A stretch of 64,000 nucleotides of DNA from Thermoanaerobaculia bacterium (GCA_035544875.1 DASZZP010000038.1:192185-256184); one strand, 5' to 3'; positions 12,021 through 28,738 are shown, numbered from the stretch's first letter. The notes: a model not told the origin generated them from the sequence alone. Program-made: numbers and translations.

Positions 12021-13466
12021 TCACTTGCCGCGCCGGTGAGGCAGCAGCTCGGGCGGCGCCAGCCCGGCGCGGGCTTCGACCAAGAACGGCGCGTCGCCGG
12101 GCGACCACACGCTTGGGGCGATCGTGAGGCGATCCAGCGCCGGCGGGTAGTAGAGCTCGTCGCTCTTGCCTCTCGGATAGCAGAAAGCGCCGACCGCCTG
12201 GATCGCGATCCCGGCTGCCACCGTCAGGACGAAGCCCCGCAGCCCCCACCCGCGCAGCCGAGCGACGACCGGCACCAGCAGCCAGACCACGAAAGGCACG
12301 GCGTCCGTGAGGAAGCGCGGCCCGTAGCACGCGCCGGCCCGGAAGTCGGTCTGGGCATAGAAGAGGAGCTGCGCCAGGCAAGCCGCCGCAGCGCACAGCT
12401 CGAGCAGCCGGTCGGCCTGTCCGCGCGCGGCTCGCGGCGTCTCGAGCACCGGCCCCGCCGTTCGGCCCGCCGGCACCATCCTGCGCGCCAGGAAAAGGAG
12501 GAAGGGGGAGAAGACCAGCAGCCCCTTGGCTGGGCTGACCAGCAGTCCGGCGACCCCCGGCAGCAGGGGGTGGGCATAGTAAGGGTGCGGGCCGGCGAGA
12601 CCCAACGCACCATAGCCGCCGGCCAGATGCCGGAAGACCGCGAGGTTGTAGACGACGACCGGCGCGAGGGCCGCGGCGGCCGCCCCGAGCGCCCAGAGCG
12701 CCCGCCGGCCGTGGCGCACCGCGAGGTAGACCAGCACCGCCACTCCCAACGCCGCGTCGGGCGGTCGGTTGCCGGCCAGCAGGCCGGCTGCCATGCCGGC
12801 GGCGGCGAGACTCCAAGCCGTCGGCTCGGCGGTCGCCGCCAGCAGCGCGCAGACCGCCAGCAGCTCGCCCGTCCCGTGCAGCCAAAGCGCCTGACTCGAG
12901 ATCACCCAGGTGCTGGTCGCGAAGCCGTAGGCCACCGCCGCGAGCACGGCGCGGGGGCGCTCCGCCTGCCGTCTCGCCAGGAGGAAGAACAGGCCCACCG
13001 ACAGGGCGGCCAGCAGCGAGGCCGCGAGCTTCTCCATGCGCAGCGAGGTGTTCTCGAGCCGCCACGGCTCCCACCCTCGCCAGGCGAGGTACGCCACGGC
13101 GGGGGCGTAGAGCGGGGAGATCAGGACCGGCGTCACGATCGGGTATCTCGTGAAGAGATGGCCGTCGGGGGAGCGAAACAGCCAGTACGCCTCGTGGTAG
13201 GGCTTGCCGGGCGGCACCTGGGTGGCCGGCCCCGCCACCGCGTCGAGGCTCACGCTCCCGGTCTGCCACAGCGCAAACGGCAGAAGGCGGGCCGGCACTG
13301 TGTCGCCGTCCTGGATGACGCGAAAATTCAGGTTGTAGACGGCGAGCGCGAGCACCGCCAGCGCGAGCGCCGCGCGCCGATCAGCGCGCCGGGTAAGCGG
13401 AGATGCGCCGCCCTCCGGGGGGTTGCCGCCGGCAGGGCAGGCGCCGACTCGACCCCGCACGATCAC
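12021..13466 (-). CDS. Polytopic membrane protein, probable GT-C-type glycosyltransferase (ArnT/PMT/DUF2029-like)
   Basis: At least 10 predicted TM helices with loops typical of GT-C enzymes. GTG start at 13466 overlaps the GT4 stop (GTGA). The track start at 13559 would overlap the upstream gene by 97 nt. Confidence 0.5.
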   Translation of the reverse strand: MIVRGRVGACPAGGNPPEGGASPLTRRADRRAALALAVLALAVYNLNFRVIQDGDTVPARLLPFALWQTGSVSLDAVAGPATQVPPGKPYHEAYWLFRSPDGHLFTRYPIVTPVLISPLYAPAVAYLAWRGWEPWRLENTSLRMEKLAASLLAALSVGLFFLLARRQAERPRAVLAAVAYGFATSTWVISSQALWLHGTGELLAVCALLAATAEPTAWSLAAAGMAAGLLAGNRPPDAALGVAVLVYLAVRHGRRALWALGAAAAALAPVVVYNLAVFRHLAGGYGALGLAGPHPYYAHPLLPGVAGLLVSPAKGLLVFSPFLLFLARRMVPAGRTAGPVLETPRAARGQADRLLELCAAAACLAQLLFYAQTDFRAGACYGPRFLTDAVPFVVWLLVPVVARLRGWGLRGFVLTVAAGIAIQAVGAFCYPRGKSDELYYPPALDRLTIAPSVWSPGDAPFLVEARAGLAPPELLPHRRGK

Positions 13467-14776
13467 CGGCTCACGCCATCGCTCCGCTGCGGCTCCTGCG
13501 CCTCGGCCACGACCCCCAGCTCCGCGTACACCCGGCCCAGTGCCGCGGCGAAGGCGCACGCCGAGAAGCGCTCCTCGAAGACCATGCGGGCGCCGGTCGC
13601 GAGGCGGCGACGGAGGCTCGCGTCGCCGAGCAGCCGCGCCAGGGCGCCGGCGAGCGCCTCGGGATCTCCGGGCTCGACCAGCAGGGCGCTGGCGCCGTCG
13701 ACCACGTCCTCGGGGATGCCGTCGACCCGAGACGCGACCACGGCACAGCCGGCCTGTAGCGCCTCGAGCAGCGACAGCGAGCCGCTCTGCTCACTACGCG
13801 AGGGCAGCACGAACACGTCCGCGCGCTGCAAATAGGGATAGGGATCAGGCACCTCCCCCACGAGCGCCACCGAGCTGCCGCCGAGCCCGAGCCGGTGGGC
13901 GAGAGCCCGGTCCGCCGCGAGGTGCGGCCCGCCGCCTGCCAGGAAGGTGCGGAACGGCACCCCCTGCCGGCGCAGGCGGTCGAGGGCGGCGAGCAGCACG
14001 TCCCAACCCTTGCGCGGGTCGTGGCGGGAGACCGCGACGATCAGCGGCGCGCCTGGCGGCCCGAGCTGCTCCGCCAGCTCGGCGATCCCCTGCCACGTCC
14101 ACTCCGCGGCCCGTGGGTGGGGCGCCGGCTGACCCTCGTGCAAGAAGGCAGCCTCTGAGGCGTAGGTGAGCTTGACGCAGCGCGCCGCGGCGCCATACCT
14201 GGCGGCGACCAGGCGCCGCACCGATTCGTAGTTGAGCAGCACCCGCTCCGACTCGCAGTAGGCGCGCCGTTCCCAGCCTGCCACCGCCAGACGGATCCAG
14301 AGGTGAGCAGCGCCATAGCGCAGGCGCGCGCGCCAGCCGTAGCCCGCGGGGGAGCACAGCAGGGAGCGCGACTCGCTCTCGTAGGTGGTGTAGGAGCTCA
14401 CGATCGGAATCGCCTCGCACCCCGCCGCGCGCAGCCGCGCGCAGGCCAGCACCCCGGCATACCCCCAGACCCCGAAGCCATGCACCAGGAGCGGCCCGCG
14501 GCGCCCGGCGGCGAAGCGCGCGATGGCTGCCGCGATACGCGGCGCGTGCAGCCCGGCGAGAAGCTGGCGCACTGGACGCACCTGGGCGGCGCTGCGGTGA
14601 ATGACCCCGAAGTCGGTGACCACCTCCGCATCGTCGCGGCCGGCGCAGAACAGGTGCGGCGTAAAGCCGAGCCGGAGGACCGCCCGGGCATGGGAACGGA
14701 CATAGCTCGAATGGCCTCCTCCCGGCTCGTCGAGCGGGTCGCGGCCCGCCACCAGGACGACGTCAGGCGCCGGCAC
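13463..14776 (-). CDS. Glycosyltransferase family 4
   Basis: GT4 C-terminal motifs ...DVFVLPSRSEQSGSLSLLEALQAGCAVVASRVDGIPEDV... (E-x7-E region). GTG start at 14776, 3 nt after the DegT stop. Confidence 0.8.
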   Translation of the reverse strand: MPAPDVVLVAGRDPLDEPGGGHSSYVRSHARAVLRLGFTPHLFCAGRDDAEVVTDFGVIHRSAAQVRPVRQLLAGLHAPRIAAAIARFAAGRRGPLLVHGFGVWGYAGVLACARLRAAGCEAIPIVSSYTTYESESRSLLCSPAGYGWRARLRYGAAHLWIRLAVAGWERRAYCESERVLLNYESVRRLVAARYGAAARCVKLTYASEAAFLHEGQPAPHPRAAEWTWQGIAELAEQLGPPGAPLIVAVSRHDPRKGWDVLLAALDRLRRQGVPFRTFLAGGGPHLAADRALAHRLGLGGSSVALVGEVPDPYPYLQRADVFVLPSRSEQSGSLSLLEALQAGCAVVASRVDGIPEDVVDGASALLVEPGDPEALAGALARLLGDASLRRRLATGARMVFEERFSACAFAAALGRVYAELGVVAEAQEPQRSDGVSR

Positions 14777-14779
14777 TTC

Positions 14780-16033
14780 CTAGGGGTCGCCCGCCGCGCG
14801 CGCCACCTCGCACGCCACGAAATCGATCTCCGACTCGCTCAGCGTCGGGCCGGAGGGGAGATACAGCCCCTTGCGGCAAAGCTCTTCGGCCACCGGATAG
14901 CGCTCGCCGCGGTGGCGCCGGAAATAGATCGGTTGCAGGTGCACCGGAATGAAGAAGGTCCGCGTCTCGATGCCCTGTCGCGCCAGACGGCGGCGCAGCT
15001 CGTCCCGCGAGCAGCCGAAGTCGTCCTCGACCAGCAAGCCGTACATCCAGAAGACGCTTTCGACTTCCGGGCGCTCGCCGGGAAGGGTGAGGCCGTGCAC
15101 CGCGGCCAGGCGCTCGCCATAGCGCCGGGCGTTGCGCCGCCGCGTCTCGACCAGCTGCGGCAGGCGCTCGGTCTGGGCGAGCCCCACCGCCGCCTGGAGG
15201 TTGCTCATGCGGTAGTTGAAGCCGAGATACGAGTGCCAGAAGTGGCGGTCTGGCGAAAAGGCGTGATCGCGCAGCCGGCGGGCGGTGGCCGCGACGCGCG
15301 CATCGTTGGTGGTCACCATCCCGCCCTCGCCGGTGGTGACGATCTTGTTGCCGTAAAACGAGAAGACGGCCGCGTCACCCAGGCTGCCCACGGGCGCGCC
15401 GCGATAGACGGCGCCGTGCGCCTCGGCCGCATCTTCCAGCAGGGCGAGCCGGTGGCGGCGGGCGATCTCGTCGAGCGGCCGCATCTCCGCCGGATGGCCA
15501 TAGGTGTGCACCGCGACGATGGCGCGAGTGCGCGGCGTGACCTTGGCCTCGACCTGCGCCACGTCCAGATTCCAGCTCTCCGCCTCGGCATCTACCAGCA
15601 CCACCCGCGCCCCGGTGTAGGTCACCGCGTTGGCGGTGGCGATCATGGTGAAGGTGGGTACGATGACCTCGTCGCCAGGGCCGATGCCGAGCGTCGCCAG
15701 GGCGAGGTGGAGGGCGGTGGTGCCGCTGGCGCAGGCGACGCCGTGGGCGCAGCCCATCGCTGCGGCAAAGCGTTCTTCGAAGGCGGGGACGAAGCGCCCC
15801 GCCGAGGAGATCCAGTTCGACTCGATGCACTCGGTCACGTAGCGCAGCTCGTTGCCGTCGAGCAGCGTGTCGCAGACCGGCAGGATGCGCCGCGCCGCGC
15901 CGCCGCGCCCGCCATCGCCTTCGCCGCTGCCCGGCGGCAGCGTCGGCTCGGGCTCCGGGCCGGGAATCAGCTGCCGCCAGGGACCCATCTCCTCGTCGCT
16001 CAACTCGAGCTCGAGCACCGTCCCCCGGATCAT
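14780..16033 (-). CDS. DegT/DnrJ/EryC1/StrS-family PLP-dependent sugar aminotransferase
   Basis: ...ILPVCDTLLDGNELRYVTECIESNWISSAGRFV...SFYGNKIVTTGEGGMVTTND... ATG at 16033 overlaps the upstream stop (ATGA). Confidence 0.85.
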   Translation of the reverse strand: MIRGTVLELELSDEEMGPWRQLIPGPEPEPTLPPGSGEGDGGRGGAARRILPVCDTLLDGNELRYVTECIESNWISSAGRFVPAFEERFAAAMGCAHGVACASGTTALHLALATLGIGPGDEVIVPTFTMIATANAVTYTGARVVLVDAEAESWNLDVAQVEAKVTPRTRAIVAVHTYGHPAEMRPLDEIARRHRLALLEDAAEAHGAVYRGAPVGSLGDAAVFSFYGNKIVTTGEGGMVTTNDARVAATARRLRDHAFSPDRHFWHSYLGFNYRMSNLQAAVGLAQTERLPQLVETRRRNARRYGERLAAVHGLTLPGERPEVESVFWMYGLLVEDDFGCSRDELRRRLARQGIETRTFFIPVHLQPIYFRRHRGERYPVAEELCRKGLYLPSGPTLSESEIDFVACEVARAAGDP

Positions 16034-17559
16034 GGCGCGGAGTTCCTCTGTTGCTTCCGGCAGGCGAGCGGCGCGGCGACGAAGCTCGCCAGCCGCTCGC
16101 CGCGCTCCAGCACGGCGGCATCGGCGCCGCTCGCGGCGAGCTCGAAGTGCTCGGCGAAGACCGCCCCGACCGGCTCCGCGATCGACGGGTCGAGCCCGCG
16201 CAGGAAATCCGCACGGTAGCCCGGAGCCGGCGGCGCCGTCGCGACCGCGGCGACGCGCCGCCGCAGGCGCACGTAGGCGGCGAACGCGCGCCAGCCGCTG
16301 GGCTGCAGCAGCCGCGCCGGACCTCCCGCGGCCAGGGCCGCCAGCACCCGGCTGGGGGCCGTGGCGGCGAGCGCGCGCACCACCTGGGCATGCAGCCGGG
16401 CGGCCACGATCGCGGCCGGCAGGGCGCCGTTCGCGATCTCCCGCGGCCGCCAGTCGGCCAAGGCGGGGAACAGCGTCACCAGATCGATCCCCATGCGCTC
16501 CGGTCGCTCGCCCAGGGCCAGCAGCGAAAGCGCCACGCGCAGGCACTGAGAGCAGCGACTGCACGCCGCCTCGTTCGCCCCCACCCGCCAGCAGGAGTAC
16601 TGGAGGTCGCAGAGATCGGTATAGCGGGTCCACAGCAGCAGCTGCACCTGCTCGCTGTGCAAGGCGCTGATCAGCGAGCCGTAGCGCAGGCCAAGCGGCG
16701 CGAGCAGCGACTCGATCGACTGCTGCGTGGCGCGCGAGTACATGAAGTGCGGGTGCTGGACGATGCGCCCGTCGAGCTCGACGTTCTCCTGCACCTCCGC
16801 CTCCGCGGCCAGGAACAGGCGGGTGGCGCCGAGCGCAACCGCACACACCAGCAGCGCCGCGAAATAGAGGAACGTGTCGGTGATCTCGTTGACCGCCACC
16901 GGATAGCCGACGAGCGGCGGGAAATCGTTCTTCCAGCTCGTGCGCAGATCGGACTCGACCTCGACCAGCGTGACGTCGCGGCGCGCCGCCATCGCCGCCA
17001 GCACCTGGCGGCGGCGGGCGGTCTGATGGTCGTGCAGCGGCGGCATCGGCGAGGTGGTGGTGACCAGCAGCGGCGCCGCCGTGAAGTCGCACAGGAGCGC
17101 CGCCTGCAGCAGGCTGTCCTTGCCACCGCTGAAGGCGGCGGCGCAGCGCCGGCCGGCGGCCAGGCGCTGGGGCGACGGCAGGCGGGGACCGCGCGCATGG
17201 AGCTCGAACGCCGCCAGTGGGGGCCAGGGCGACGCCGCGGATCTCCCGCTGCGATAGGCCTCGAGCGTCGCCGCCTCGGTCTCGAGCAGGCGGCACCAGA
17301 ACTCCGCCTCACCCGGCGGCAGCTCGACAGGCAGCTCGACGCGGCAAGGGCGCAGCAGGTTCCAGTGCGAGTGCAGGCAGAGCAGCGCCACCGTCCACCA
17401 GAGCGGCTGTGGCAAGCGCGCCAGCTCGACCTCCGCAGGGAACCTGAGCGTGAAGCTGGTGCGGTGATAGAGGTCCGTCTCCGGCTCGACGCGCCAGCGG
17501 AAGGTTGCCGTCCGCCGCTCCGCGTCGAGCGCCGGCGGGGCGAGCGTGATGACGTTCAT
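16030..17559 (-). CDS. PP-loop ATP-pyrophosphatase-family protein with unique ~160-aa N-terminal domain and CxxCxxC tail (possible sugar amidotransferase)
   Basis: AAAFSGGKDSLLQAALL (SGGxDS PP-loop) in the middle of the protein and ...CSRCSQC near the C-terminus. Translationally coupled on both sides (ATGA overlaps at 17559 and 16033). Confidence 0.6.
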   Translation of the reverse strand: MNVITLAPPALDAERRTATFRWRVEPETDLYHRTSFTLRFPAEVELARLPQPLWWTVALLCLHSHWNLLRPCRVELPVELPPGEAEFWCRLLETEAATLEAYRSGRSAASPWPPLAAFELHARGPRLPSPQRLAAGRRCAAAFSGGKDSLLQAALLCDFTAAPLLVTTTSPMPPLHDHQTARRRQVLAAMAARRDVTLVEVESDLRTSWKNDFPPLVGYPVAVNEITDTFLYFAALLVCAVALGATRLFLAAEAEVQENVELDGRIVQHPHFMYSRATQQSIESLLAPLGLRYGSLISALHSEQVQLLLWTRYTDLCDLQYSCWRVGANEAACSRCSQCLRVALSLLALGERPERMGIDLVTLFPALADWRPREIANGALPAAIVAARLHAQVVRALAATAPSRVLAALAAGGPARLLQPSGWRAFAAYVRLRRRVAAVATAPPAPGYRADFLRGLDPSIAEPVGAVFAEHFELAASGADAAVLERGERLASFVAAPLACRKQQRNSAP

Positions 17560-19661
17560 CGGCTCCTACCCGGCAGGCGAGAGAGGGCGGCGCCCAGGGC
17601 GCGGCGCGCGGACCAGTAAGCATGGGCGCCCCGCCACCAGCGGGAGTCGTGGATGGCGGCGAGCTCCCGGCGGGCCTGCCGCAGCCGCTCTTCGGCGGCG
17701 GCCAGCTCGGCACCGGTCGCCGCGAGCTCCCGGCCGGCCTGCCGCAACCGCTCTTCGGCGGCGGCCAGCTCGGCCTCAGGTCCGACGCCGGCCCGCAACA
17801 GCGGCGCGAGGCCGCCGTTGAGCCAGTTGAGCAGCGCCCAGTCGGTGCCTTTGGCCGCGATCAGCTCGAGCAGCAGCCGCGCTGCGGCAACGTCCTGCCG
17901 TCCGCCGCTGGCCAGCTCCGGCGCGAAGGCGAAGACGGTGTCGAGGACGCGGCCATGCAGCTGATGGAAGCGGGCGGCCGCGGCGAGGAAAGGGAGCGCG
18001 TCGCCGACGCCCACCAGTCCGCAACCGAGGCGCCCCTTCTCCTGCTGCTGATGCAGCGCCAGCGCCTCGACCGAGCGGCGCAGCGAACCCGGCCGCCAGG
18101 CATCGAGCCGGTAGCACCACTCGTTGTCTTCGAAGTAGGCCATCTCCACTTCCAGCGGCAAGGTGGCGAACGCCGACCAGCGCGCCAGGAGCAGCGCCCC
18201 GCTCACCCACCGGCACGGGCCGGAGCTCCCCAGCCCGGGGTCGTCGAAGCGCAGGCCGCGGCCGAGCGGCGCGAGGGTGAGGACAGCGCCGTCCTCGCGG
18301 TAGTCGCCCCCGCAAAGCTGTACCCGCCCGTCGGGGAGGACGATGGTGCCGCCGCAGGCGATGGCGGCGGAGTCGCTGTCGAGGACCTGCGCGAGGTGCT
18401 CGAGCGTGCCGGGAAGGACCTCGATGTCGTTGTCGATGAACAATACGTACTCGGTCGTGGCCCGTTCGACGCCGAGCTGCCGGCCGCCGGCACAACCCAG
18501 GTTGCGGTCGAGCTCGACGAGCTCGGCGCCGTGAGCCCGGCAGGACCGGCGCACGGCATCCCTGGCCGCCGCGGGCGAGTTGTTGTCGATCACCAGCAGA
18601 TGACAGGGAAGGCGCGCGAAGCGGCGCAGCGCGGCCAGCGCGGCCTCCGTGTGCGAGGCTCGGTTCCACGACAACATCACCACCGTGACCCGGGGCTCGC
18701 CGCCGCCCGCGAGCAGGCTGGCCGGCAGCGGGGCGAGGTTCGCCTCGGCATGGGCGACCAGCTCGCGGCGCAGGGCGTCCAGCGATCCTTCTTCGAGTGC
18801 GGCGCCGGCCGCGGGCGCCGCCTCCCGCACCCCGGGTCGTCGCACCTCGCGTTCGGGCGGCGCGGCGGACACCTCGAAGTCGGCGAGCGCGAACTCGGCG
18901 ATGGCCGGCAGTTTGTGGTAGGCGGAGGCGCGATACTGCACGGCCTTCCCCAGCAGTGCCGCGGCGATCATCACGTGAGCGCGGTCGGTGCGCACCAGCG
19001 CGGCGCCCGCGATGCGCGCCAGCCACTCCGGCAGAGCCTCGCAGACGTCCGAGATATCCACGTTGTCAGGCGGCAGGGCGAAGCTCGAGCTCGACTCGCG
19101 GTCGGTGCGATAGGCGTGCAGCACTCCGTCGCCGGCCCGTGCGAAGGGGGTGAAATCGAAGAAGAACGCGCAGTCGTGTGCGAGGCGCGCGTCGCAGAGG
19201 CCGCGGATCTGGCGCCAGGACTCCCGCTCGCGTGCGAAGACCAGGGCGCGGCTGCGCGACAGCGCGTCGCGCACGGCCTCTTCGGCGGGCTCGAAGGAGG
19301 AAGGCAAGATCACGACGCGGGCGAAACGCATCTCGGCCAGCGCCAGCACGCGCGGCATGATTTCGTGGTAGACGCGGCACCAGGCGCCTCCGCCCGAGAT
19401 CACCGCCAGCTCGCCGCTTGCCCCGGCGACCTCCTCGAAGCCGATCTCCCGGTAGTCGAGGCCGGCGAGCAGCCGTCTGGTGCCGGCCTGGATCAGCTCG
19501 TCGCCGCGATTGCCGACGCCGCGGACATAGGTGAAGCCGGCGGCGCCGCCGATCGCCGCCAGCAGCTGGCGCCGGCTCCGCTCGAGGCGCCGCCGATGGC
19601 TGGACGGCGGCGCGAAGGGCTGCGGCTCGGCGGCGGCGGGTGACGCCTCGCCCCGGCTCAC
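17556..19661 (-). CDS. Fusion protein: polysaccharide pyruvyl transferase-like domain + GT2 glycosyltransferase + C-terminal coiled-coil repeats
   Basis: N-terminus ...YVRGVGNRGDELIQAG (PS_pyruv_trans-like). Middle: VTVVMLSWNRASHTEAAL...LLVIDNNS...DNDIEV (GT2 DxD). C-terminus: ELAAAEERLRQAGRELAA repeated, from a 63-nt tandem DNA repeat. Start assigned to the GTG at 19661 (RBS GGTGAGG), which is conserved with the decayed paralog's start. Confidence 0.65.
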   Translation of the reverse strand: MSRGEASPAAAEPQPFAPPSSHRRRLERSRRQLLAAIGGAAGFTYVRGVGNRGDELIQAGTRRLLAGLDYREIGFEEVAGASGELAVISGGGAWCRVYHEIMPRVLALAEMRFARVVILPSSFEPAEEAVRDALSRSRALVFARERESWRQIRGLCDARLAHDCAFFFDFTPFARAGDGVLHAYRTDRESSSSFALPPDNVDISDVCEALPEWLARIAGAALVRTDRAHVMIAAALLGKAVQYRASAYHKLPAIAEFALADFEVSAAPPEREVRRPGVREAAPAAGAALEEGSLDALRRELVAHAEANLAPLPASLLAGGGEPRVTVVMLSWNRASHTEAALAALRRFARLPCHLLVIDNNSPAAARDAVRRSCRAHGAELVELDRNLGCAGGRQLGVERATTEYVLFIDNDIEVLPGTLEHLAQVLDSDSAAIACGGTIVLPDGRVQLCGGDYREDGAVLTLAPLGRGLRFDDPGLGSSGPCRWVSGALLLARWSAFATLPLEVEMAYFEDNEWCYRLDAWRPGSLRRSVEALALHQQQEKGRLGCGLVGVGDALPFLAAAARFHQLHGRVLDTVFAFAPELASGGRQDVAAARLLLELIAAKGTDWALLNWLNGGLAPLLRAGVGPEAELAAAEERLRQAGRELAATGAELAAAEERLRQARRELAAIHDSRWWRGAHAYWSARRALGAALSRLPGRSR

Positions 19662-19916
19662 CCTCACCGCCTCAACCTCGCCCGGTCGGGAGACGCTGGC
19701 CGGGAGGACTGGGCAGATGCACGGATGGCGACGCGGACCGGGAGCACTTGACGAACTGGGTTTTCCAGGCTTGGCGGCGCAGTATAGCACGCGCTCGCGC
19801 GTACCATGGCTCGTTCATGGCTTGTCGCCTTCCGCATCTCGACACCAAGCCGAGGGGTAGCCGGAAGAGTCTTGCACCTTGGGCGAGGACGTGACGGCGG
19901 TGGCTCGACAGGGTTC

Positions 19917-20219
19917 CTAGCGGGCTTGTCGTGATCGGCGGCCGTAGCGACCGATGTCGTCATGCTTGATCACGTCTACGAAGAAGATTGCGCCCTGCTC
20001 CACACGAAACACAATGCGGTCGCCGCTGCTAATCCGCGCCTCGAGATAGTACTTGTCCGGCAGGATCGGCTTCACGTTGAGGCCGGGAGTATCAGTCCCT
20101 TTGATGAGCGCCATTGCAACCCGATCACAGGAAGCTTGCCGTTCCGCAGGGAGCCGCGCGTAACTGTTCCACCACTGTTCCGTCCAGGTGGCGGATGCAA
20201 CAGCCGGACGGAGAGCCAA
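19917..20219 (-). CDS. RelE/ParE-family type II toxin
   Basis: ...PDKYYLEARISSGDRIVFRVEQGAIFFVDVIKHDDI matches the RelE/ParE core (RxxxGDyRiiyri...i.il.i.hR). Lies directly downstream of the antitoxin. Confidence 0.6.
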   Translation of the reverse strand: MALRPAVASATWTEQWWNSYARLPAERQASCDRVAMALIKGTDTPGLNVKPILPDKYYLEARISSGDRIVFRVEQGAIFFVDVIKHDDIGRYGRRSRQAR

Positions 20220-20225
20220 ACCTGC

Positions 20226-20543
20226 CTACCGATGCCCGCGCCGGCCCTTGCCCTTGAAGCTATCGAGGATTGCCCGAGCTTCTTCGGCCGAATGCGTAAC
20301 CTTGGCCCGGCCCTCGGCAAGGTCTGCCTCGGCCTTGCGGATTCGGCGCTGCATCTCGGGATGGTGAAACCAGAGCTGGTCGCGCGGCACAAGCGCCGCC
20401 GGCACCAGTTCGTAGGTCCCCCGCTCCGTTCGCTCGAGAAGCACGAAGTCTCCAGGTTTGAGGCCAAGCGAAGCGCGCACCTCCTCGGGCAGGGTCGCGC
20501 GCCCCTTCCGGTCGACGCTCAAGTACGAAACTGCGCTCGCCAT
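20226..20543 (-). CDS. AbrB/MazE/SpoVT-family antitoxin
   Basis: MASAVSYLSVDRKGRATLPEEVRASLGLKPGDFVLLE (swapped-hairpin AbrB/MazE fold signature). Internal ATG at 20543. 7 nt upstream of the toxin. Confidence 0.65.
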   Translation of the reverse strand: MASAVSYLSVDRKGRATLPEEVRASLGLKPGDFVLLERTERGTYELVPAALVPRDQLWFHHPEMQRRIRKAEADLAEGRAKVTHSAEEARAILDSFKGKGRRGHR

Positions 20544-20749
20544 CGTCCCTTCATCCCACAGTGGGAAAGTACCACTCGGCTTCTCACTTCGCAAGAGGTC
20601 GCTGTCTCTTGTCCGATCGTCTCCTCGTTCGGCAAAATGGCAACACAGCCCAGGGGTGTGGGGATCTCTTGCCATGTCACCTTGAGAGGACGGAAATCCC
20701 GCCCCGGCTACCCGGGGGAACCGCAAGTCTTGGGCGAAAGGGCGCTGCT

Positions 20750-21517
20750 CTACCATGAGCTGAGGACGACCACCTCGAGGTCGCGGCGGGGAGCGATCTC
20801 CGCCAGCACCTGCCGGCGGCGCGGCGTCACGTGGTCGCTGAGCGGGTGCATCGGCGAGGTGGTGGTCACCAGCACCGCCGGCAGTCCCAGCTCGGCGAGC
20901 AGCGCGGCCTGGAGCAGGCTGTCCTTGCCACCGCTGAAGGCCGCCGCACAGCGCCCCGCCTCGGCCAGCGGCGCCGGCCCGAGCAGCGGCGGCCCGTCGT
21001 CCAGCAGCTCGATCGAGCTCGCGCCGCCGGGGCCGCGCCCGGAGGCGCCGGCCGGCGCCTCCGCTAGGCCGCCACCGGGCTCACTCGCGGCGCCGCCCGC
21101 GGGCCGCTCCGCGCCGCCGCCTCGACGGTAGGCCCCGAGCGTCGTCAGCTCGCGCGCCAGCAGCCGGAGCCAAAACTCGCGGTGCCCGGGCTCGAGACCG
21201 ACCGGCAGCCGCACGGAGCAGGGGCGCAGGAGCGTCCAGTGCGAGTGCAGGCAGAGCAGCGCCACGGTCCACCAGAAGCCTTCAGGCAACCGGCGGCCGT
21301 CGAGGCCGGCAGGCAAACGCAAGCCGAAGGAGTGCGCGCTGTAGAGCGGTGTCGCAGGCTCGATCTGCCAGCGAAACCAGGCGCCCGCGCAGCTCACCTC
21401 CGGCGGATGGAGAACGATCCGGTGCATGGTCGGCGTCACCCGGGCGGCCGTCGCGCGCGGCCGCCCAGCCGCGCGGCGGCACGGCGCGAGCGCCAGTAGA
21501 GGTCGGCGACCCGCCAC
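20750..21517 (-). pseudogene. Truncated paralog of the PP-loop gene (N-terminal 250 aa only, ends in a premature stop)
   Basis: Protein aligns along its length to residues 1-260 of the 16030..17559 product (FRWRVEPxT..., WWTVALLCLHSHW, AAAFSGGKDSLLQAALL, LVTTTSPM) and then stops at LSSW*. Confidence 0.6.
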
Positions 21518-22511
21518 TACAGCGAGCCGTGGTCGGCGGCCAGCTCCCGCCGCAGGGCCGCCAACTCGGCCTGCGCCGCCGCCCGCTCTTGCTGCGTCGC
21601 GGCGAGCTCGCCCTGCGCCGTCGCCAGCTCACCTCGAGCCGGGCCGAGCGCCCCGCGCGCCTCGTGGAGCTCGGCCAGCAGCCCGCTCCGAAACAGCGGC
21701 GCCAGGCCGCCGCGCGTCCACTCCGTCGCCAGCCACGCTGGGCCGCGGGCGGCGAGCAGCTTGAGCAGTAGCCGCGCCCCGGCCGCGTCGCGGCCGCCAC
21801 CCGCCGAGAGCTCGGGAGCGAACACGAAGACCCCTTCGAGCACGCGCCCGTGCACGCGGTAGAAGTGGGGCAATCGCCTACAGGTAGGGAGCGATCGGCT
21901 GACCTCGGCCGCAACCTCAGGGGGCCCTTTGACGTCCAGCCCCCGTCCCAGGGGCTCGAAATGCAGCACCCCGTCGGGCTGCTCCCAGAAATCGCCGCCG
22001 CAGACAGTGCTGCGGCCGATCGCGCGTCAGCACGACTAAGGTCAAACGCGGTTCGCCGCCGCCCGACAGCAGTTCTGGCCTCAACAGCTCCAGGTTGCGC
22101 CGCGCGCGGGCGAGCAGCCGTTCGCGCGGCGGCGTCGGTGCCGGGGGAAGCGGCGGAGACGGCGCCGGCGGCACCGCCATCCCCGCCGGCAGCGGCCGGG
22201 CGAGCCGCCGGACGTCAAAACCGCCCAAGACGTACTCGGCGATCGCCGGCAGCTTGTGATAGGACGAGATGCGGTATGCCACCGTAGCCCACAGCCACTC
22301 GTCGAGAGAGCAGCAGCGGACGGAGAGGTCGATGCCGCCGGCGGGCGCCGGCGTAGATCAGCTCGTCGCCCAGATTGCCGGCGCCGCGCACGAATGTCAG
22401 GTCCGAAGGGTCGCCGATCGCTGCCAGTAGCCGCCGCCGGTTGTCCTCGATGCTGCCGGCGGGGGCCCTCGACCCCGGCTCCGGCGCCGCGGCCGGGTGC
22501 TCCGCGCTCAC
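21517..22511 (-). pseudogene. Decayed paralog of the pyruvyl-transferase::GT2 fusion gene (three out-of-frame fragments with internal deletions)
   Basis: ORF fragments 22215..22511, 21917..22282 and 21517..21969 align respectively to the N-terminus (RRRLLAAIG...FVRGAGNLGDELI), the middle (YHKLPAIAEYxLxxFxV...LSGGGEPRxTxVxL) and the C-terminus (HGRVLxxVFxFAPEL...coiled-coil) of the 17556..19661 product. Most of the catalytic domains are missing. Confidence 0.6.
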
Positions 22512-23011
22512 CGCCCGAGCTCCGGTGGCGGACGTCGCGCCGAGGTCGCGGAAGGGTGCGCGGACGGGCAGTCGGCCCGCCCCGCCGGGGGCGGCGCGAA
22601 CCCTTTGCCGCCGCTCCGCGATCAGCCGGGAGGCGCGACGGGCACACGGCAGTGAGCTGCATGATAGGGAAGTTACTATAGCACGCTCCCCCGTGCCTCC
22701 TCCGGGTAGCGAAATGCACGCCCAGAGGTAGATTTCGCTTGAAAGATGTCGCGGGCGGGGCTCTCAAGCGAGGCTCTCGCCCCGGCCAGCCTCCCGGCCC
22801 GCCCCCCGGACAGCAGCCGGAGCCCCCACGGGACGCGCACAAGGAGCAAGGGCGTGCTATAATCAGTAGCAAGGTAATCGCGAAGAGGTCGAAGTAGGGC
22901 ATTGGGGTCTGATCGGCCTGCTCGGAGGAATCGTTGAACTACGTCGGTTTCTCTTGCCCCGCAGAATGACCAAGAAATGGGCTATCAGACACACTCGAAG
23001 GAGAACTTATC

Positions 23012-23485
23012 GTGGGAATCTTGATACTCATCCTCATGGTGCTTCTGCCTCTGATCCCGGCCTTCCTTCTGTTCAAGTACCTGCCGCAGCCTAGGGCAAG
23101 CGTTGATGGAAAGGTTCCCGGCTTCACTATTAAGCTTGGCGGGGCAATCGCCGGGTATGCTGCTCTTCTCTTAATTGTGCTCTTTAACAATTCCAGGTTT
23201 ACAATACCACCAAACCCAAGCGCCTTCCAGAAATGGACGGTTGAAGGTACTGTCTCGTTCGATGACCAGCGGGGCACACTACTGTACGACAGTATTTATT
23301 TCTTACCGCCAACCCTAGTCATCAAGGAGAATCACTTTCTCTTCACGCTGTACGCACCCGCTCAGACGCATCTGCCGAAGCTATATATTGGTGTGGACGG
23401 CTACAAATCTAATGAACGGTCCTTGACTCTGGATGCTCGCGAGCGAGTCAGCAAGCTTATGGCGGTAGAGAGCAAAGGTCCATGA
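23012..23485 (+). CDS. Hypothetical membrane-anchored protein in a low-GC islet
   Basis: GTG start with AAGGAG RBS 8 nt upstream. N-terminal TM (ILILILMVLLPLIPAFLLF). Local GC is clearly below that of the flanks. Confidence 0.45.
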   Translation: MGILILILMVLLPLIPAFLLFKYLPQPRASVDGKVPGFTIKLGGAIAGYAALLLIVLFNNSRFTIPPNPSAFQKWTVEGTVSFDDQRGTLLYDSIYFLPPTLVIKENHFLFTLYAPAQTHLPKLYIGVDGYKSNERSLTLDARERVSKLMAVESKGP

Positions 23486-23908
23486 TTTGTGCGGAAATGT
23501 TGACTTGTGCGGAACTACGTAAGAAAGATAGGTGAGCGCGTTCGTGGTGTCCGTGTTGCTGCCATTGCGGACGCCCGACACGGTGTCGGCACCGAGGGTT
23601 GAGGTAAATGTACTGGGAGCATGGCCGCTGTCGGTAAACTGCGTCCGGTAAGTGAAGTGCTTGCCTTCCGTGGACACTTCCTGATGGTCAAAGGTCGTAG
23701 CCGCGAGACCCGCAGGGTTGGTAAAGGCAGTTGTGGCGTCGTCAGCAAGTCCGAGAAAGGCGCCGCCCATCGCTAGGCTCCTTGCACCGGGCGTTGAGAA
23801 GTTGAACTGGATACCGGTGCTGATCTCGTCATTGCTCTGAGCCAAGGAGTCGGCGGGTAGCAGGAGAAGAAGGGGCAAGAGCCGGAGAATCATGATCGAA
23901 CGGTACAT
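23381..23908 (-). CDS. FadL/OmpP1-like outer-membrane protein N-terminal fragment (probable remnant)
   Basis: Signal peptide MYRSIMILRLLPLLLLLPADSLAQ, then ...ARSLAMGGAFLGLADDATTAFTNPAGLA (FadL-family N-terminal signature). Only 176 aa against about 430 expected. The 3' end overlaps the opposite-strand ORF by about 105 nt. Confidence 0.35.
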   Translation of the reverse strand: MYRSIMILRLLPLLLLLPADSLAQSNDEISTGIQFNFSTPGARSLAMGGAFLGLADDATTAFTNPAGLAATTFDHQEVSTEGKHFTYRTQFTDSGHAPSTFTSTLGADTVSGVRNGSNTDTTNALTYLSYVVPHKSTFPHKSWTFALYRHKLADSLASIQSQGPFIRFVAVHTNI

Positions 23909-24274
23909 ATGCGGGTTCCTCTCTCTTGGATATAGCACAATCTCGATCGAAGTGAAGAAATCATAGCATAGCTGGGAGCAAGAAGGCAAGGTTAGCCGTT
24001 TCTGGTTGTCGAGTGGCCGGCCGCCGCCGGGGTTGCTCGTTGCGCGTCCGACGGCCAGGAAAACCGCCGCCCCTATGCTCGCCTCACCGGTGGCGCTGGC
24101 GTGCCTCGGCACGTCCGAGGGGATGAAGCCCACCGAGGCGCTTGCCATGGTCGCCGGCTACGGCGAGGGTTATCCGCACAAGTGGCCGCCGCCGCGAGGG
24201 CTCGCGGTGTCAGGGCGAGGCGCTATTCGATCGAAAGGCGGCTCCGGCCCGCCCGAACCGGCGGTCGGTCAGGG

Positions 24275-24850
24275 CTACGGCCGGGCGGCCGCCGACGGCG
24301 ACGACGTTGCGGATGCTGCGGGGCGCGCGGCCCGGGAGGCCGGCGGCGCCGGATTGGGCTTGTAGAGGGTGACCAGGCAGCCGCCGAGCGCGGCCAGCAC
24401 GATGCCGGCGAAGAAGGGCCAGCGGATGCCGCGCCAGCCGCCGGCCGGCGGCTGCAGGAGCAGCGCGACCACCGCGTTGACGATCGGCGCGCCGGCGAAG
24501 ACGATCGACATCACCACCGGCGGCGTGCCGCGGGCGCCGAAGGCGAGGAGGACGCCGAATGCTCCCACCGCCCCGGCCACGCCGGCGGCGAGCGACCAGA
24601 GCATGCCGGTGCCCGGAAAGCTCCAGGAGGTCCCGCCGCGCGCCGCCAGCCAGCCGAGCGGGGCCAGCACGGCGGTGAAGAAGTAAGCCACGCCGACGAA
24701 CAGGAAGGCCTTGTAGCGGCCGTTCACCGGGTCGGCCATGCCGACCTGCCCGCTGTGCAAGAGGATGCCGTAGAGCCCCCACGCGACCACCGACGACAGC
24801 GCGAACAGCAACCACGCGAGACCCGCCCCTGCACCTTCTCCGCTGGTCAT
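24275..24850 (-). CDS. Small 4-TM membrane protein, last gene of the large cluster
   Basis: AAGAGGA RBS, ATG 24850. Four hydrophobic helices. Lies 60 nt after the permease stop. Confidence 0.55.
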   Translation of the reverse strand: MTSGEGAGAGLAWLLFALSSVVAWGLYGILLHSGQVGMADPVNGRYKAFLFVGVAYFFTAVLAPLGWLAARGGTSWSFPGTGMLWSLAAGVAGAVGAFGVLLAFGARGTPPVVMSIVFAGAPIVNAVVALLLQPPAGGWRGIRWPFFAGIVLAALGGCLVTLYKPNPAPPASRAARPAASATSSPSAAARP

Positions 24851-24910: not shown

Positions 24911-27900
24911 TCAACGCTCTGCCTTGAGCGCCGGCACCAGCGGCACCCGGAGCGCGCTGGCCGCGGCGACGGCGCTCGCCAGCATGCCGGCCAGCAGCAC
25001 GGCGGCCAGGGTCGCGGTCAGGGAGCGCCATGGCAATCCCCCGGCCAGTCCCGCGCCGAGCGCCTCCGGCAGCAGTCCGGCGGCGGTTCCCAGCGCCACC
25101 CCGAGTGCGAGCAGGGCCGCGTTCTCGAGCAGCAGCAGGCCGGCCAGCTGGTGCCTGCGGAAACCGAAGGCGCGAAGCGCCGCGAGCTCCCAGCGCCGCT
25201 CGACCACGTTGCGCAGCAGCACCACCGCGAGACCGCAGGTGCCGAGCAGCAGGCCGAGGCTGCCCAGGGCCTGGAAGCTCGCGAGGTAGGTCTCCTCCAC
25301 CTTGGCGTAGAGGCGCAGCCGCTCGGCAACCGGCACCACCTCGAATCCGAAGTCGCGCAGCTGGTCGCCGAGCAGGCCGGCGACGGCGTTTTCCCGCCCG
25401 CGAGCCGTGCGCACCAGGAAAAAGCTGCGCCCGCCATGGCGCGGGAAGTGGCGCGCCAGCTCTTTCTCCGGGATCAGCAGCGCGTCCTGCAAGGGGCTGC
25501 CGGCGAGCAGGCCGACGATGCGCAGCCGCACCGGCTCGCCGCGCTCGCCGGCCAGGCTCAGCTCGTCGCCGACCCCGAGATGGAGGATCCAGCGCACCGA
25601 CTGCTCGTCGCCGAGCGCCGGTACCACCTCGGACCCCGCTCCGCCAGCGCGCGCCGCGGAGCGCGCCTTGGCGAAGAGGTCCGCCAGGCTCCCCTCCCCC
25701 GCGGCCATCGCGAAGGTTCGGCGCGCCAGGAGAGGCGGCACGCCCAGCAGCCGCGGCCGCCGCGGCTGGTAGAGGTTGAGACAGCTCGCGTCGTCGCCCG
25801 GCACCGCCGGCAGGCCGACGATCTCGCCGCCGGCGAGCAGCCGCTCGGCCGGCTCGGGAAAGCCGAGCGCGCGGCGCCCGTCGCTCCGGCCGAGGTCGTG
25901 GTAGAGAGGGGTCGCGGACTCGGCGAGCAGTGTGAATCCTCCCCACTCCCGCCCCTCCCCCGCCGCGCCAGCGCGGCGGTTGGCCGCCACCAGCACCAGC
26001 ACGAAGCAGGCGCAGGCCACCAGGGCGACCGCGAGCACGCTGCGGCCCGGGTTGGCGGCGGTGTTGCGGACCCCCAGGATCATCAGGCCGCCGCCGGGCG
26101 ACTCCCGCTCGCCGACCGCCAGGCACCAGAGCGCGAAGGCGCTGACGCCGGCCGCGAGCAGACTGGCGCCGCTGCCGAAGGCGAGGGCCGGCGCGCCGCC
26201 CCCAGCGGCACGGAGAGCCACGGCCAGCACGACGCCGGCGGCGCCCGCGGCGAGGCCAACCGCCCGCCACCAGGGCCGGCGGCGCTCGCCGCGCCCCGCC
26301 GTCACGGCGCCGGCCAGCAGTTGCGCCACCGGCAGCCGGCCCATCCGGCGCACGCCGGCGGCGAGGAAGACGAGCACCGTGACGACGCTCCCCAGCCAGC
26401 CCCAGACGAAGGTCGAGGGGCTGGCCGCAAACGCGAGCCGCGGCGCGCCCGCCCCCGCTTGCAAACCGCCGAGCAGCGGCAAGGCGAAGGCGCCCGCGCC
26501 TGGGAGACCGAGCAGCGCGCCGGCGCCGGCTAGCACCAGCCCTTCGCCCAGGAAGCGGCGCCGCACCGCGCCGGCCGGGTAGCCCAGGGCCAGCAGCAGG
26601 CCGACCTCGCGCGCCCGGCGCTCGAGCCCGAGAGTGAAGAGCAGACCGGTCACCAGCGCCGCGGAGACGATCAGGAACGAGCTGAAGCTGACGAACAGCG
26701 AGCTGAAGTCGGTGCCCTCGGCGGCCGACCGCAGCCCCTCGGCGCGCACCGGGCGCAGGGCGAGGCCGAACGCCGCGGGCCGCAGGCGCGCCAGGAGGAG
26801 CGGCTCGAAACGCGCGGCGAAGGCGGCGGCGCTTTCACCCGCCGGGCAGCTGAGGCGCAGCGAGGTGAGGTCGCCGAAGCGGGTGTGCCAAAGCCGGCGG
26901 CCGGCGGCGAGGCTCACGAAGGCCTTGGGAGTGGGCCCGAAGCGCTGCCAGTATGCCTCGTCGCGCGGCCGCACCCGGTGGAGATCGACCGGAAAGGGCG
27001 GCGACCACGAGGCCATGTCGCGCGCCTGGTCGATGCCGGGGAAGGCAGGGGTCAGGCCGCGGTCCGCCGCCAGTCCGGCGAGAGCCACCACGCCGCGCAC
27101 CCTGAAGCTGGCGCTGGCGGTGGCGAGCGGCGCTCCGGCGCTGCCGCTGTCGGGCAGGAAGTAGCTCATCGCGACCCTGTCGCCGGGCCGCGCCGCGAGA
27201 TCCTCCGCCGCCCAGCTGTCGAGCAGGATGTCGTCGCCCTCGGGCAGCGCCGCCGGCTCACCGCTCGCCAGGAGCAGCTCGCCGGCGCCCAGGTCGGCTT
27301 TCGACCGAGGTACGTCAGGGGTGGTTTTCACAGCCTTCAAGCCGGTGGGAGGAGTCCCGGCCCCCCCGGCGAGCCAGCGCCTGGCAGGCCGCCTTCCGAC
27401 CGAGGTCCCAGAACGGCGGCGATCCTCTTCGCTCCATTCAAGCCGGTGGGAGGAGTCCCGGCCTCCCTGGCGAGTCAGCGCCTGGCGGGTCGCCTTCCGA
27501 CCGAGGTCCGCGAGCCGCCACTCCAAACCCCCATAGCGTCTTGCCTCACCCGCCCCACCAGCGAGCGGACCTCGGTCGGAAGGCGACCCGCGAGGCGCCC
27601 CCCGGCCATTCGCGAGCCCGGGACGGAGGGGTCCCACTGCGCTCACCATCGAGTAGGGAACGGCGCGCCCGTGGGCGGCGAGCTCGATCGCCAGGTAGGT
27701 CAGGACCGGCTGCGCCGCCGAGCCCAGCTCGACGGCGGCCGCCGCGGCGCCCTCCGCCACCGCCGGCGGCAGGAAGAACTCGCCGCTCTCGAGCGCGAGG
27801 CAGGCGGCGCCGCCGGCCGCGCCGAGCGGGCGCAGGGCAAGGCCGATGTCGTCGAGCCGCAGGCCAGCGGCAAGCGCCTTCTCCGCCCCCTGCGCCCTCA

Positions 27901-28738
27901 TCGCCCCCTGCGCCCTCATCGCCGACGGCGCACGGCCGTCCTCAGGCAGCTGGCCGATCAGCAGAGCGTTGGCGCGCCCTGCCTGCCCCAGCTCGCGCTG
28001 GAGCTCGGCGAGCGGCACGAAGGCGTTGGGCGGGGTCGCCTGCCCGGCCGCCAGGTCGAAGCTCCCCGAACCGCGGTCGGGGACCACGCCGGCGACGGTG
28101 AAGCGATGCGTCGCGAGCTGCCCCTCGGGGTCCTTGGCGGCCAGCAGCATCTCGCGTGGGATGGCGCTCGGCTGCTCCCAGGACAGCAGGACGTCGTCGC
28201 CGGGCCGCGCTCCGAGCTGCCGCGCCAGCGTCTCGTTGACCGTCAGAGGGGGCAGCAGCCCGGTGCCCGCCGGGCCTGCCGAGCCCGCCGGCAGCGGCGC
28301 CGGCGCGCCGGGGTAGAGCGCGGCGAAGCGCCGATCGACGCCGAGGACGGCGACCCGGGCGGCACGGCGGTTGAGGGCGGCGTGCACGGCGGTGCCGCGC
28401 AGCACGATCAGCGGGGCGACAATTGGCGTGGGCGGCGTGGGCAGCGTGGGCGGCATGGGTGCCGCGGGTGCCCCGCCCGCCGTCGCCTGCGCCACGGCCG
28501 TGGCCGCCGCCGGCCGGGCCAGCCGGCGCGCCATCTCCTCCGCCAGCTCCTCGCGGAAGAAGTGCGGCGCCACCGCCGCCAGCTCGATGTCGCCGAGCCG
28601 TTCGAGCCACAGCCGCCGCAGGCTGTCGCGCACCGAGTCGCCCACCGCCAGCGCGCCGGTCAGCACGCTGGTGGTGACCGCCGCGCCGAGCAGCACCGCG
28701 AGGTGGAGGCGCCAGAAGTGGGTCAGGCTGCGAAGCAC
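24911..28738 (-). CDS. Giant ABC-transporter permease with two MacB/FtsX-type modules (YbbP-like, ~1275 aa)
   Basis: N-terminal TM1 MLRSLTHFWRLHLAVLLGAAVTTSVL followed by a large extracytoplasmic domain and an FtsX 3-TM bundle. The second half repeats the arrangement (GVRNTAANPGRSVLAVALVACACFVLV...FtsX). GTG start overlaps the ATPase gene by 16 nt. Confidence 0.8.
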   Translation of the reverse strand: MLRSLTHFWRLHLAVLLGAAVTTSVLTGALAVGDSVRDSLRRLWLERLGDIELAAVAPHFFREELAEEMARRLARPAAATAVAQATAGGAPAAPMPPTLPTPPTPIVAPLIVLRGTAVHAALNRRAARVAVLGVDRRFAALYPGAPAPLPAGSAGPAGTGLLPPLTVNETLARQLGARPGDDVLLSWEQPSAIPREMLLAAKDPEGQLATHRFTVAGVVPDRGSGSFDLAAGQATPPNAFVPLAELQRELGQAGRANALLIGQLPEDGRAPSAMRAQGAMRAQGAEKALAAGLRLDDIGLALRPLGAAGGAACLALESGEFFLPPAVAEGAAAAAVELGSAAQPVLTYLAIELAAHGRAVPYSMVSAVGPLRPGLANGRGAPRGSPSDRGPLAGGAGEARRYGGLEWRLADLGRKATRQALTRQGGRDSSHRLEWSEEDRRRSGTSVGRRPARRWLAGGAGTPPTGLKAVKTTPDVPRSKADLGAGELLLASGEPAALPEGDDILLDSWAAEDLAARPGDRVAMSYFLPDSGSAGAPLATASASFRVRGVVALAGLAADRGLTPAFPGIDQARDMASWSPPFPVDLHRVRPRDEAYWQRFGPTPKAFVSLAAGRRLWHTRFGDLTSLRLSCPAGESAAAFAARFEPLLLARLRPAAFGLALRPVRAEGLRSAAEGTDFSSLFVSFSSFLIVSAALVTGLLFTLGLERRAREVGLLLALGYPAGAVRRRFLGEGLVLAGAGALLGLPGAGAFALPLLGGLQAGAGAPRLAFAASPSTFVWGWLGSVVTVLVFLAAGVRRMGRLPVAQLLAGAVTAGRGERRRPWWRAVGLAAGAAGVVLAVALRAAGGGAPALAFGSGASLLAAGVSAFALWCLAVGERESPGGGLMILGVRNTAANPGRSVLAVALVACACFVLVLVAANRRAGAAGEGREWGGFTLLAESATPLYHDLGRSDGRRALGFPEPAERLLAGGEIVGLPAVPGDDASCLNLYQPRRPRLLGVPPLLARRTFAMAAGEGSLADLFAKARSAARAGGAGSEVVPALGDEQSVRWILHLGVGDELSLAGERGEPVRLRIVGLLAGSPLQDALLIPEKELARHFPRHGGRSFFLVRTARGRENAVAGLLGDQLRDFGFEVVPVAERLRLYAKVEETYLASFQALGSLGLLLGTCGLAVVLLRNVVERRWELAALRAFGFRRHQLAGLLLLENAALLALGVALGTAAGLLPEALGAGLAGGLPWRSLTATLAAVLLAGMLASAVAAASALRVPLVPALKAER

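Follow-up and report, generated by a model that had tools for sequence, protein, structure and literature searches.

Introduction

At polysaccharide loci, a divergent intact gene set accompanied by remnant pseudogenes is a well-known sign of cassette exchange and of xenologous displacement in situ. Here, we describe a locus of this appearance in a 64,000-nucleotide stretch of DNA (the window, GC content 0.716) from a metagenome-assembled Thermoanaerobaculia contig of 350,704 bp (GCA_035544875.1, DASZZP010000038.1:192185-256184), in which an intact five-gene glycan cassette (cassette A) is accompanied by the degraded remains of the first two genes of a homologous cassette (copy B), with a toxin-antitoxin (TA) unit between them. 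Cassette A (12024-19661) encodes a pyruvyl-transferase::GT2 glycosyltransferase fusion (Pv::GT2), a PP-loop ATPase, a DegT-type aminotransferase, a GT4-type glycosyltransferase, and a membrane protein, and is of the type denoted below as clade I. All the relevant genes are on the minus strand and, in the order of transcription, the locus consists of a gene at 24275-24850, a low-GC stretch, copy B, a spacer, the TA unit, a second spacer, and cassette A.

An initial annotation of the window, made from the sequence alone, attributed copy B to a segmental duplication of the Pv::GT2 and PP-loop genes followed by pseudogenization. The degraded, co-oriented second copy of the first two cassette genes is indeed present, but its origin by duplication of the intact pair is not borne out, because the PP-loop fragment of copy B falls within a separate clade of the PP-loop family (clade II) with 99% bootstrap support. 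The explanation that we favor, with a probability of roughly 80%, is that horizontal exchange placed two xenologous cassettes next to each other and that the redundant clade II one is being deleted. What appeared to be a decayed tandem duplicate would then be the remnant of another lineage of the same cassette, and the evolutionary reading of the locus is corrected to this effect.

Results

Ancestry of the degraded copy

Comparison of the region 20544-22900 with 16030-19800 using blastn yielded five collinear matches on the same strand with 65-80% identity (Table 1), and the same pairs of segments were recovered by a repeat search. At the protein level, tblastn aligned residues 1-196 of PP-loop A with 21427..20777 (53% identity, E 2e-51) and residues 52-103, 233-380, 488-518, and 595-731 of Pv::GT2 A with 22490..22347, 22366..22007, 22017..21922, and 21903..21478, respectively; these four matches occur in the right order, in three different frames. 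The similarity between the two copies is thus far beyond chance, and the earlier description of a second copy in the same order and orientation as the first is accurate. The identification of the products as a PP-loop protein and a pyruvyl-transferase::GT2 fusion was likewise supported by Pfam matches, the SGGKD motif, and a PP-loop fold.

Look-ups of proteins from the window by exact sequence returned no record. Protein searches recovered PP-loop A itself as P0030 and PP-loop B as P0001. The search with PP-loop A separated the homologues into two groups, namely, graded relatives of PP-loop A (85, 82, 77, 76, and 74% identity, and so on), which we denote clade I, and a more distant set that includes P0044-P0057 (55-62% identity), denoted clade II. 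PP-loop B is 59-63% identical to the clade II proteins P0044-P0057 (213-253 bits), compared with 52% (194 bits) to PP-loop A. In a neighbor-joining tree built from Kimura distances over 196 columns with 300 bootstrap replicates, PP-loop B was placed inside a 14-member clade II with 99% support, to the exclusion of PP-loop A, which groups with P0031-P0042 and L001; the branch leading to PP-loop B is not unusual in length. Nonsynonymous divergence (dN), computed on 202 shared codons of the PP-loop gene, follows the same division: clade II genes lie at 0.24-0.25 and clade I genes at 0.38-0.47 from copy B, and from copy A, clade I genes lie at 0.10-0.25 and clade II genes at 0.33-0.35.

The same partition is found in individual residues and in gap placement. 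At 11 diagnostic columns, defined as those where the majority residues of the two clades differ (a stricter criterion of disjoint residue sets gave only 5), PP-loop B agrees with clade II at 10 and PP-loop A with clade I at 10. Clade II proteins that were left out as controls have the clade II state at 9-11 of 11-12 columns and the clade I state at none. PP-loop B aligns to residues 1-218 of the L055 clade II protein with 64.7% identity and without a single gap (tblastn, E 2e-72), whereas 25 gap positions are required to align it with PP-loop A. The remains of the other gene point in the same direction: when aligned to the L055 clade II gene, the four Pv::GT2 B pieces score 115, 91.7, 59.3, and 57.8 bits, compared with 72.4, 52.4, 47.4, and 31.6 bits when aligned to Pv::GT2 A. 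All the pieces score higher against L055 and L056, and the two longest also against L057, than against A, L050, and L054; clade I genes other than A score like A.

The two copies are therefore adjacent, collinear, and in the same orientation by both blastn and tblastn, as tandem duplicates would be, but they are not mutually closest by the tree, the bit scores, dN, the diagnostic columns, or the Pv::GT2 pieces. Both surviving genes of copy B are thus of clade II ancestry, and copy B is not a duplicate of copy A.

Lesions and divergence of copy B

Copy B carries disabling lesions with respect to intact homologues, as is characteristic of pseudogenes, and what survives of it is a gutted first gene and the first 40% of the second gene. 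The open reading frame (ORF) of PP-loop B ends at 20750, retaining approximately 220 homologous codons out of 510-600. Pv::GT2 B has undergone at least two frame changes and three deletions, of ~132, ~118, and up to 58 codons compared with the intact clade II gene of L055, such that most of the pyruvyl-transferase domain (residues ~53-184 in L055 numbering), the GT2 core (~351-468), and a portion of ~501-558 are missing. In addition, an in-frame stop codon is present at 21519-21517, where the relatives have a conserved Trp. The premature stop, frameshifts, and large internal deletions listed in the initial annotation are thus all accounted for, along with the truncation of PP-loop B. No remnants of the other three clade II cassette genes were found anywhere in the window. 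The homology to PP-loop genes ends at ~20774-20750 and similarity to the TA locus L058 begins at 20622; the spacer between these points is a deletion/insertion scar.

In the ancestral frames of the four B pieces, the GC content at third codon positions (GC3) is 0.85-0.91 (0.907 in PP-loop B), against 0.89-0.93 in the intact neighboring genes. The ratio of nonsynonymous to synonymous divergence (dN/dS) between copy B and L055 is 0.49, compared with 0.42 between the intact clade II genes of L057 and L055, and the excess dN of copy B toward clade I over its clade II kin amounts to only ~0.05-0.08. Copy B shows neither a dN/dS near 1 nor a loss of the codon-position signal, the hallmarks of neutral decay. 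Because GC3 is kept at this level and dN/dS is ordinary, the ~50% protein divergence between copies A and B reflects old ancestry under selection in separate lineages and not decay after a duplication. Decay in copy B is represented by the structural lesions alone and is comparatively recent. The lower GC3 of the middle and N-terminal ORFs as delineated in the initial annotation was considered as a trace of older decay and rejected, given that these ORFs are partly out of the ancestral frame and that the correct frames have GC3 of 0.85-0.89.

The cassette in related genomes

Related loci were viewed to at most 10 kb on each side of the cassette. A single intact cassette is present in each of the clade I loci L001, L050-L054, and L061, and in each of the clade II loci L055-L057, and the gene order, as far as the contigs reach, is shared by both clades: Pv::GT2, PP-loop, DegT, and usually the GT4 gene and the gene for a ~460 aa protein. 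No second PP-loop copy was detected in any of the 58 related loci within the DNA fetched for each, and the TA pair is not found in these single-copy loci either. The comparison with sister genomes suggested along with the initial annotation thus returned a single copy in every relative examined. The two cassettes of the window belong to distinct clades, each represented by single, intact cassettes elsewhere, which is the pattern expected of xenologues that came to lie side by side.

The nearest relative, L061, matches 19623..15321 (~4.4 kb) with 86.4% DNA identity and has one cassette, with unrelated DNA upstream and with neither copy B nor the TA pair. In every genome examined, the alignment with the window does not extend past the cassette ends, and different neighbors are found each time, even at 86% DNA identity; a search for an ancestral upstream neighbor in seven relatives revealed no synteny beyond the cassette. 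The distribution of the family is patchy, encompassing Acidobacteriota, Eremiobacterota/Vulcanimicrobiota, Binatia, an alphaproteobacterium, Actinomycetota, and Rokubacteria. Because the single-copy loci, the varying neighbors, and the patchy distribution all fit, the cassette seems to move as a unit, or else to occupy a rearrangement hotspot.

The toxin-antitoxin unit

The DNA between the two copies resembles the TA locus L058 over 727 nt (20622..19896; 82.8% DNA identity, with 88% and 86% identity of the two proteins) and, more distantly, L059 (75% DNA identity), and both these loci carry the pair in neighborhoods unrelated to that in the window. The GC content of the unit is 0.62-0.64 here, against ~0.72 for the window, and 0.585 in L058, against 0.724 for its locus. 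Because the unit recurs in unrelated contexts and is low in GC, it is an autonomous, mobile module. A stabilizing effect of the unit on the rearrangement, as put forward in the initial annotation, is not indicated by any of these results.

The RelE/AbrB pair noted between the copies in the initial annotation was recovered with independent evidence for each partner. The antitoxin scores above the curated cutoffs of PF04014 (30.3 vs 24.7 bits) and TIGR01439 (39.6 vs 28.3 bits). The toxin, which has at least 328 homologues conserved over all 100 residues, was assigned to no family in Pfam, NCBIfam, and PDB sequence searches, even at E <= 10, and was identified by structure only: the AlphaFold2 (AF2) model (mean predicted local distance difference test score, pLDDT, 89.1) matched YafQ, RelE, YoeB, ParE, and HigB in Foldseek searches (TM 0.6-0.77, E 2e-5, probability 1.00). 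The model is small and alpha/beta, with two N-terminal helices on an antiparallel sheet, as in the RelE/ParE fold, and the cognate antitoxin gene is adjacent and co-inherited, the pair being kept in L058 and L059. The protein is accordingly a predicted RelE/ParE-superfamily toxin that lies outside the curated sequence families. Because the family is 100 aa long and conserved from the first residues, the TTG at 20219 is a fitting start; the public annotation (VHR45_08550, 65 aa) begins the toxin at an internal Met.

No terminator was predicted between the co-oriented TA pair and Pv::GT2 A. In the clade II genome L057, a VapB/PIN TA pair (L057 16067-16692) is located directly downstream of the cassette. 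Given this adjacency, TA modules, although of different families, border the cassette in at least two genomes.

The PP-loop enzyme

More than 390 homologues of the PP-loop protein were found, in several phyla. The SGGKD motif (S144, G145, G146, K147, and D148) and four cysteines (C323, C333, C336, and C339) are invariant among 49 homologues. PP-loop A was not assigned to any Pfam or NCBIfam family, the curated QueC model included, whereas its AF2 model (pLDDT 93.5) matched QatC (E 3e-6), TtuA, MnmA, QueC, ThiI, Cap9, and LarE in Foldseek searches. The PP-loop label holds because the motif is invariant and the fold matches, and the protein is predicted to be a QueC-like PP-loop ATPase with an additional N-terminal domain (~1-130) and an additional C-terminal helical domain (~340-509). 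In several relatives, the PP-loop domain is fused to a pyruvyl-transferase domain (PS_pyruv_trans; P0100, P0115, P0132, P0136, P0140, and P0144) or to DegT (P0109). Given the lack of a curated family, these fusions, and the conservation of the cassette, the enzyme may catalyze an undescribed sugar modification.

Other features of the locus

The remaining genes of cassette A were identified with varying degrees of support. Pv::GT2 A scores above the Pfam gathering thresholds for both its domains (PF04230, 53.7 vs 25.3 bits; PF00535, 66.3 vs 23.3 bits); its ORF is open to 19790, and the N-terminal alignment of orthologues places the start near 19661. The DegT-type protein, which is 92-96% identical to its orthologues in L050 and L061, matches the LegC-family aminotransferase model (1e-102, 343 bits) below the curated cutoff of 420 bits, and the GT4-type protein matches the NCBIfam EpsE model (2e-23, 83 bits) far below the cutoff of 400 bits. 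The product of gene 5 was not assigned to any family in the Pfam search and contains at least seven hydrophobic segments in a crude Kyte-Doolittle scan. Toward the 3' end of Pv::GT2 A, two direct copies of a 63-nt sequence, 95% identical to each other, occupy 17656-17774; they encode a 21-residue repeat, ELAAAEERLRQA.RELAA, in a part of the protein whose predicted structure is mostly helical. The spacer between the TA unit and cassette A shows no similarity to the DNA upstream of sister cassettes (the blastn match to L061 begins at 19623).

Upstream of copy B, the low-GC stretch, which produced no plasmid match and no Pfam match, has the appearance of foreign DNA that was acquired recently and is partly broken; a promoter-like site is located within it at 23989..23960. 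Copy B is thus bordered by low-GC DNA on both sides, by this stretch on one and by the spacer and TA unit on the other. Beyond the low-GC stretch, the genes are host-like, with GC3 of 0.93 at 24275-24850 (a membrane protein) and 0.91 at 24911-28738. Elsewhere in the window, ARAGORN reported a 91-nt tRNA-Thr (GGT) at 37041-37131, whereas an Rfam scan of the whole window at the gathering score yielded no tRNA; the call is doubtful, unless the gene is an unusual one.

Table 1. Features of the glycan locus, with coordinates in the window
Feature	Position	Strand	Basis
Cassette A gene 5, multi-pass membrane protein, ~460 aa	12024..13430	-	tblastx synteny with L001, L050, L053, L054
Cassette A, GT4-type glycosyltransferase	13463..14776	-	NCBIfam GT4 matches below cutoff; sister-locus orthologues have PF00534
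Cassette A, DegT/DnrJ/EryC1-type sugar aminotransferase	14780..16000	-	best NCBIfam match, LegC-family aminotransferase model
Cassette A, PP-loop ATPase A, 509 aa, clade I	16030..17559	-	SGGKD motif, predicted fold; NCBI VHR45_08540 identical
Cassette A, Pv::GT2 fusion A	17556..19661	-	PF04230 and PF00535; probable GTG start at 19661
Spacer, TA unit to cassette A, 234 nt	19662..19895		GC 0.66
TA unit	19896..20622	-	limits set by DNA similarity to L058
Predicted toxin, 100 aa, TTG start	19917..20219	-	RelE/ParE-superfamily fold (AF2 and Foldseek)
Antitoxin, 105 aa, AbrB/MazE (SpoVT) DNA-binding domain	20226..20543	-	PF04014, TIGR01439
Spacer, PP-loop B to TA unit, 127 nt	20623..20749		GC 0.63; PP-loop homology ends ~20774-20750, L058 similarity starts 20622
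PP-loop B, N-terminal 225 codons only, clade II type	20750..21427	-	NCBI VHR45_08560 identical; gap-free vs L055
Pv::GT2 B, C-terminal piece (~469-500, 559-717 of L055)	21469..22017	-	tblastn, translation; GC3 0.88
Pv::GT2 B, middle piece (~185-350 of L055), second frame	22007..22366	-	tblastn; GC3 0.85
Pv::GT2 B, N-terminal piece (~8-76 of L057), third frame	22347..22598	-	tblastn; GC3 0.89
Low-GC stretch (0.50-0.57) bordering copy B	22600..24250		composition
Membrane ORF, 157 aa, two transmembrane segments, overlapping the PorV/PorQ-like fragment	23012-23485	+	ORF in low-GC stretch
PorV/PorQ-like N-terminal fragment with signal peptide	23381-23908	-	NF033709, 5.7e-7, below cutoff
B/A blastn match	20767-21015 ~ 16962-17210	same strand	75%, E 7e-41
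B/A blastn match	21126-21854 ~ 17252-17959	same strand	65.5%, E 2e-35
B/A blastn match	22047-22118 ~ 18691-18762	same strand	blastn
B/A blastn match	22231-22276 ~ 18890-18935	same strand	blastn
B/A blastn match	22334-22461 ~ 19469-19595	same strand	75%, E 4e-19

Discussion

In the scenario of juxtaposition by horizontal exchange, two xenologues, or at most very old paralogues, would have become neighbors at a variable glycan locus. Deletions, frameshifts, and a nonsense mutation would then have inactivated the redundant cassette, that of clade II, with loss of the 3' part of its second gene and of the three downstream genes, and the TA unit would have inserted either independently at the deletion scar or together with it. 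The view of the initial annotation that a glycan locus is being remodelled here fits the degraded second copy and the intervening TA pair. We infer both the horizontal origin of the second cassette and the order of these events. Because the named carriers of clade I are all Thermoanaerobaculia and low-GC DNA lies to either side of copy B, we lean toward cassette A being the resident type.

Several observations weigh against this scenario. The nearest clade II relatives of copy B are only ~63-65% identical at the protein level, and no donor was found. Incongruence between the gene tree and the host tree is not demonstrated, because the taxonomy of the clade II hosts is absent from the cluster-member records and there are no shared markers in the fetched flanks; formally, this leaves room for an old duplication with reciprocal loss. 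Given that at most 10 kb was viewed on each side, a distant second copy in a relative would escape detection. The GC content of copy B (0.75) resembles that of the host, so composition does not mark it as foreign. A search for island boundaries, comprising flanking direct or inverted repeats, tRNA genes, and RNA families, produced nothing convincing, and no mobile-element genes delimit an island. Finally, the contig comes from a metagenome assembly.

Among the alternatives, one retains xenology: an incoming block with the TA pair and the clade I cassette would have overwritten, by xenologous displacement, the 3' portion of a clade II cassette that was already resident, with TA addiction aiding fixation. 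Transcription from the TA pair might then now extend into cassette A. We regard this course of events as improbable. Of comparably low probability is an ancient tandem duplication in an ancestor shared by the hosts of both clades, followed by reciprocal loss, with the present genome as a late holdout. Such a history would require an independent, complete loss in every relative examined, including the one at 86% DNA identity, and none of the examined genomes has both copies intact, even though a duplication would produce just such a tandem, co-oriented layout and the hosts of the two clades are similar in GC content and come from the same sample series. The depths of divergence, moreover, could match a shared host history, given that dN between copy B and clade II (0.24-0.25) is close to that between A and L001 (0.25); the neighborhood, however, is different in every genome, which suggests mobility rather than stable vertical descent.

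That the locus is an assembly chimera, with the DNA of two populations joined at shared cassette sequence, we consider very improbable. The contig is metagenome-assembled, and organisms of clades I and II co-occur in similar samples, but a mis-join would not create the three frames, the deletions, and the nonsense codon of copy B; the DNA identity between A and B (65-75%) is too low for the copies to be collapsed or bridged in an assembly graph; and host-like genes are present on both sides (24275-24850 and 24911-28738). That the Pv::GT2 and PP-loop genes were recently duplicated in tandem in situ, with neutral decay of the upstream copy, is scarcely credible: although the copies are adjacent, in the same order and orientation, and the sister genomes are single-copy, copy B groups with clade II and not with A in the PP-loop gene and the Pv::GT2 pieces alike, it is equally far from A (58.7%) and from the orthologue of A in L001 (59.7%), neutral decay to 53% protein identity would have erased the codon-position signal whereas GC3 is 0.85-0.91 and dN/dS ordinary, and decay is not expected to converge on clade II residues and the clade II linker length.

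With copy B read as the remnant of a different lineage, the locus would record horizontal exchange of glycan cassettes among soil Acidobacteriota and not local gene birth. Cassette exchange is the expected behavior of surface-glycan loci and, in itself, of modest interest. The more useful by-product of the analysis is a widespread, conserved five-gene cassette whose central PP-loop enzyme has no curated family.

Comparison with known systems

The TA pair resembles type II systems with a RelE/ParE toxin and an AbrB/MazE antitoxin in several ways. The gene for the antitoxin (105 aa) comes first and is separated by 6 nt from that for the toxin (100 aa); the antitoxin scores above cutoff in both Pfam and NCBIfam; the predicted toxin structure can be superposed on those of YafQ, RelE, and YoeB; and the two genes form a mobile module. 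The pair differs from the known type II systems in its toxin, which was matched to no sequence family in Pfam, NCBIfam, or PDB and is recognized from its predicted fold. The sequence family is new and the kind of system is already known.

PP-loop A shares with QueC and QueC-like PP-loop ATPases (QueC, QatC, and Cap9), TtuA, and MnmA the SGGKDS motif, a Rossmann-like adenine-nucleotide alpha-hydrolase core, and four invariant Cys residues clustered after the core. The SGGxDS motif and the adenine-nucleotide alpha-hydrolase fold together place it in the PP-loop superfamily. It falls outside the QueC family proper, with no curated match and 509 aa, including the extra domains, compared with ~220-240 aa. 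Unlike the enzymes named above, it contains a beta-rich N-terminal domain of ~130 residues and a helical C-terminal domain of ~170 residues, has no sequence-family match, is encoded in a glycan cassette, and has relatives fused to pyruvyl transferase or DegT.

For the locus as a whole, the closest parallel is the replacement of O-antigen and capsule cassettes. Unlike in those cases, no insertion sequence elements, conserved flanking "anchor" genes, or recombination junctions were identified here. The features in common are two divergent, homologous glycan gene sets at one locus, one intact and the other reduced to pseudogene fragments, along with low-GC, apparently foreign DNA nearby and a neighborhood that varies among relatives.

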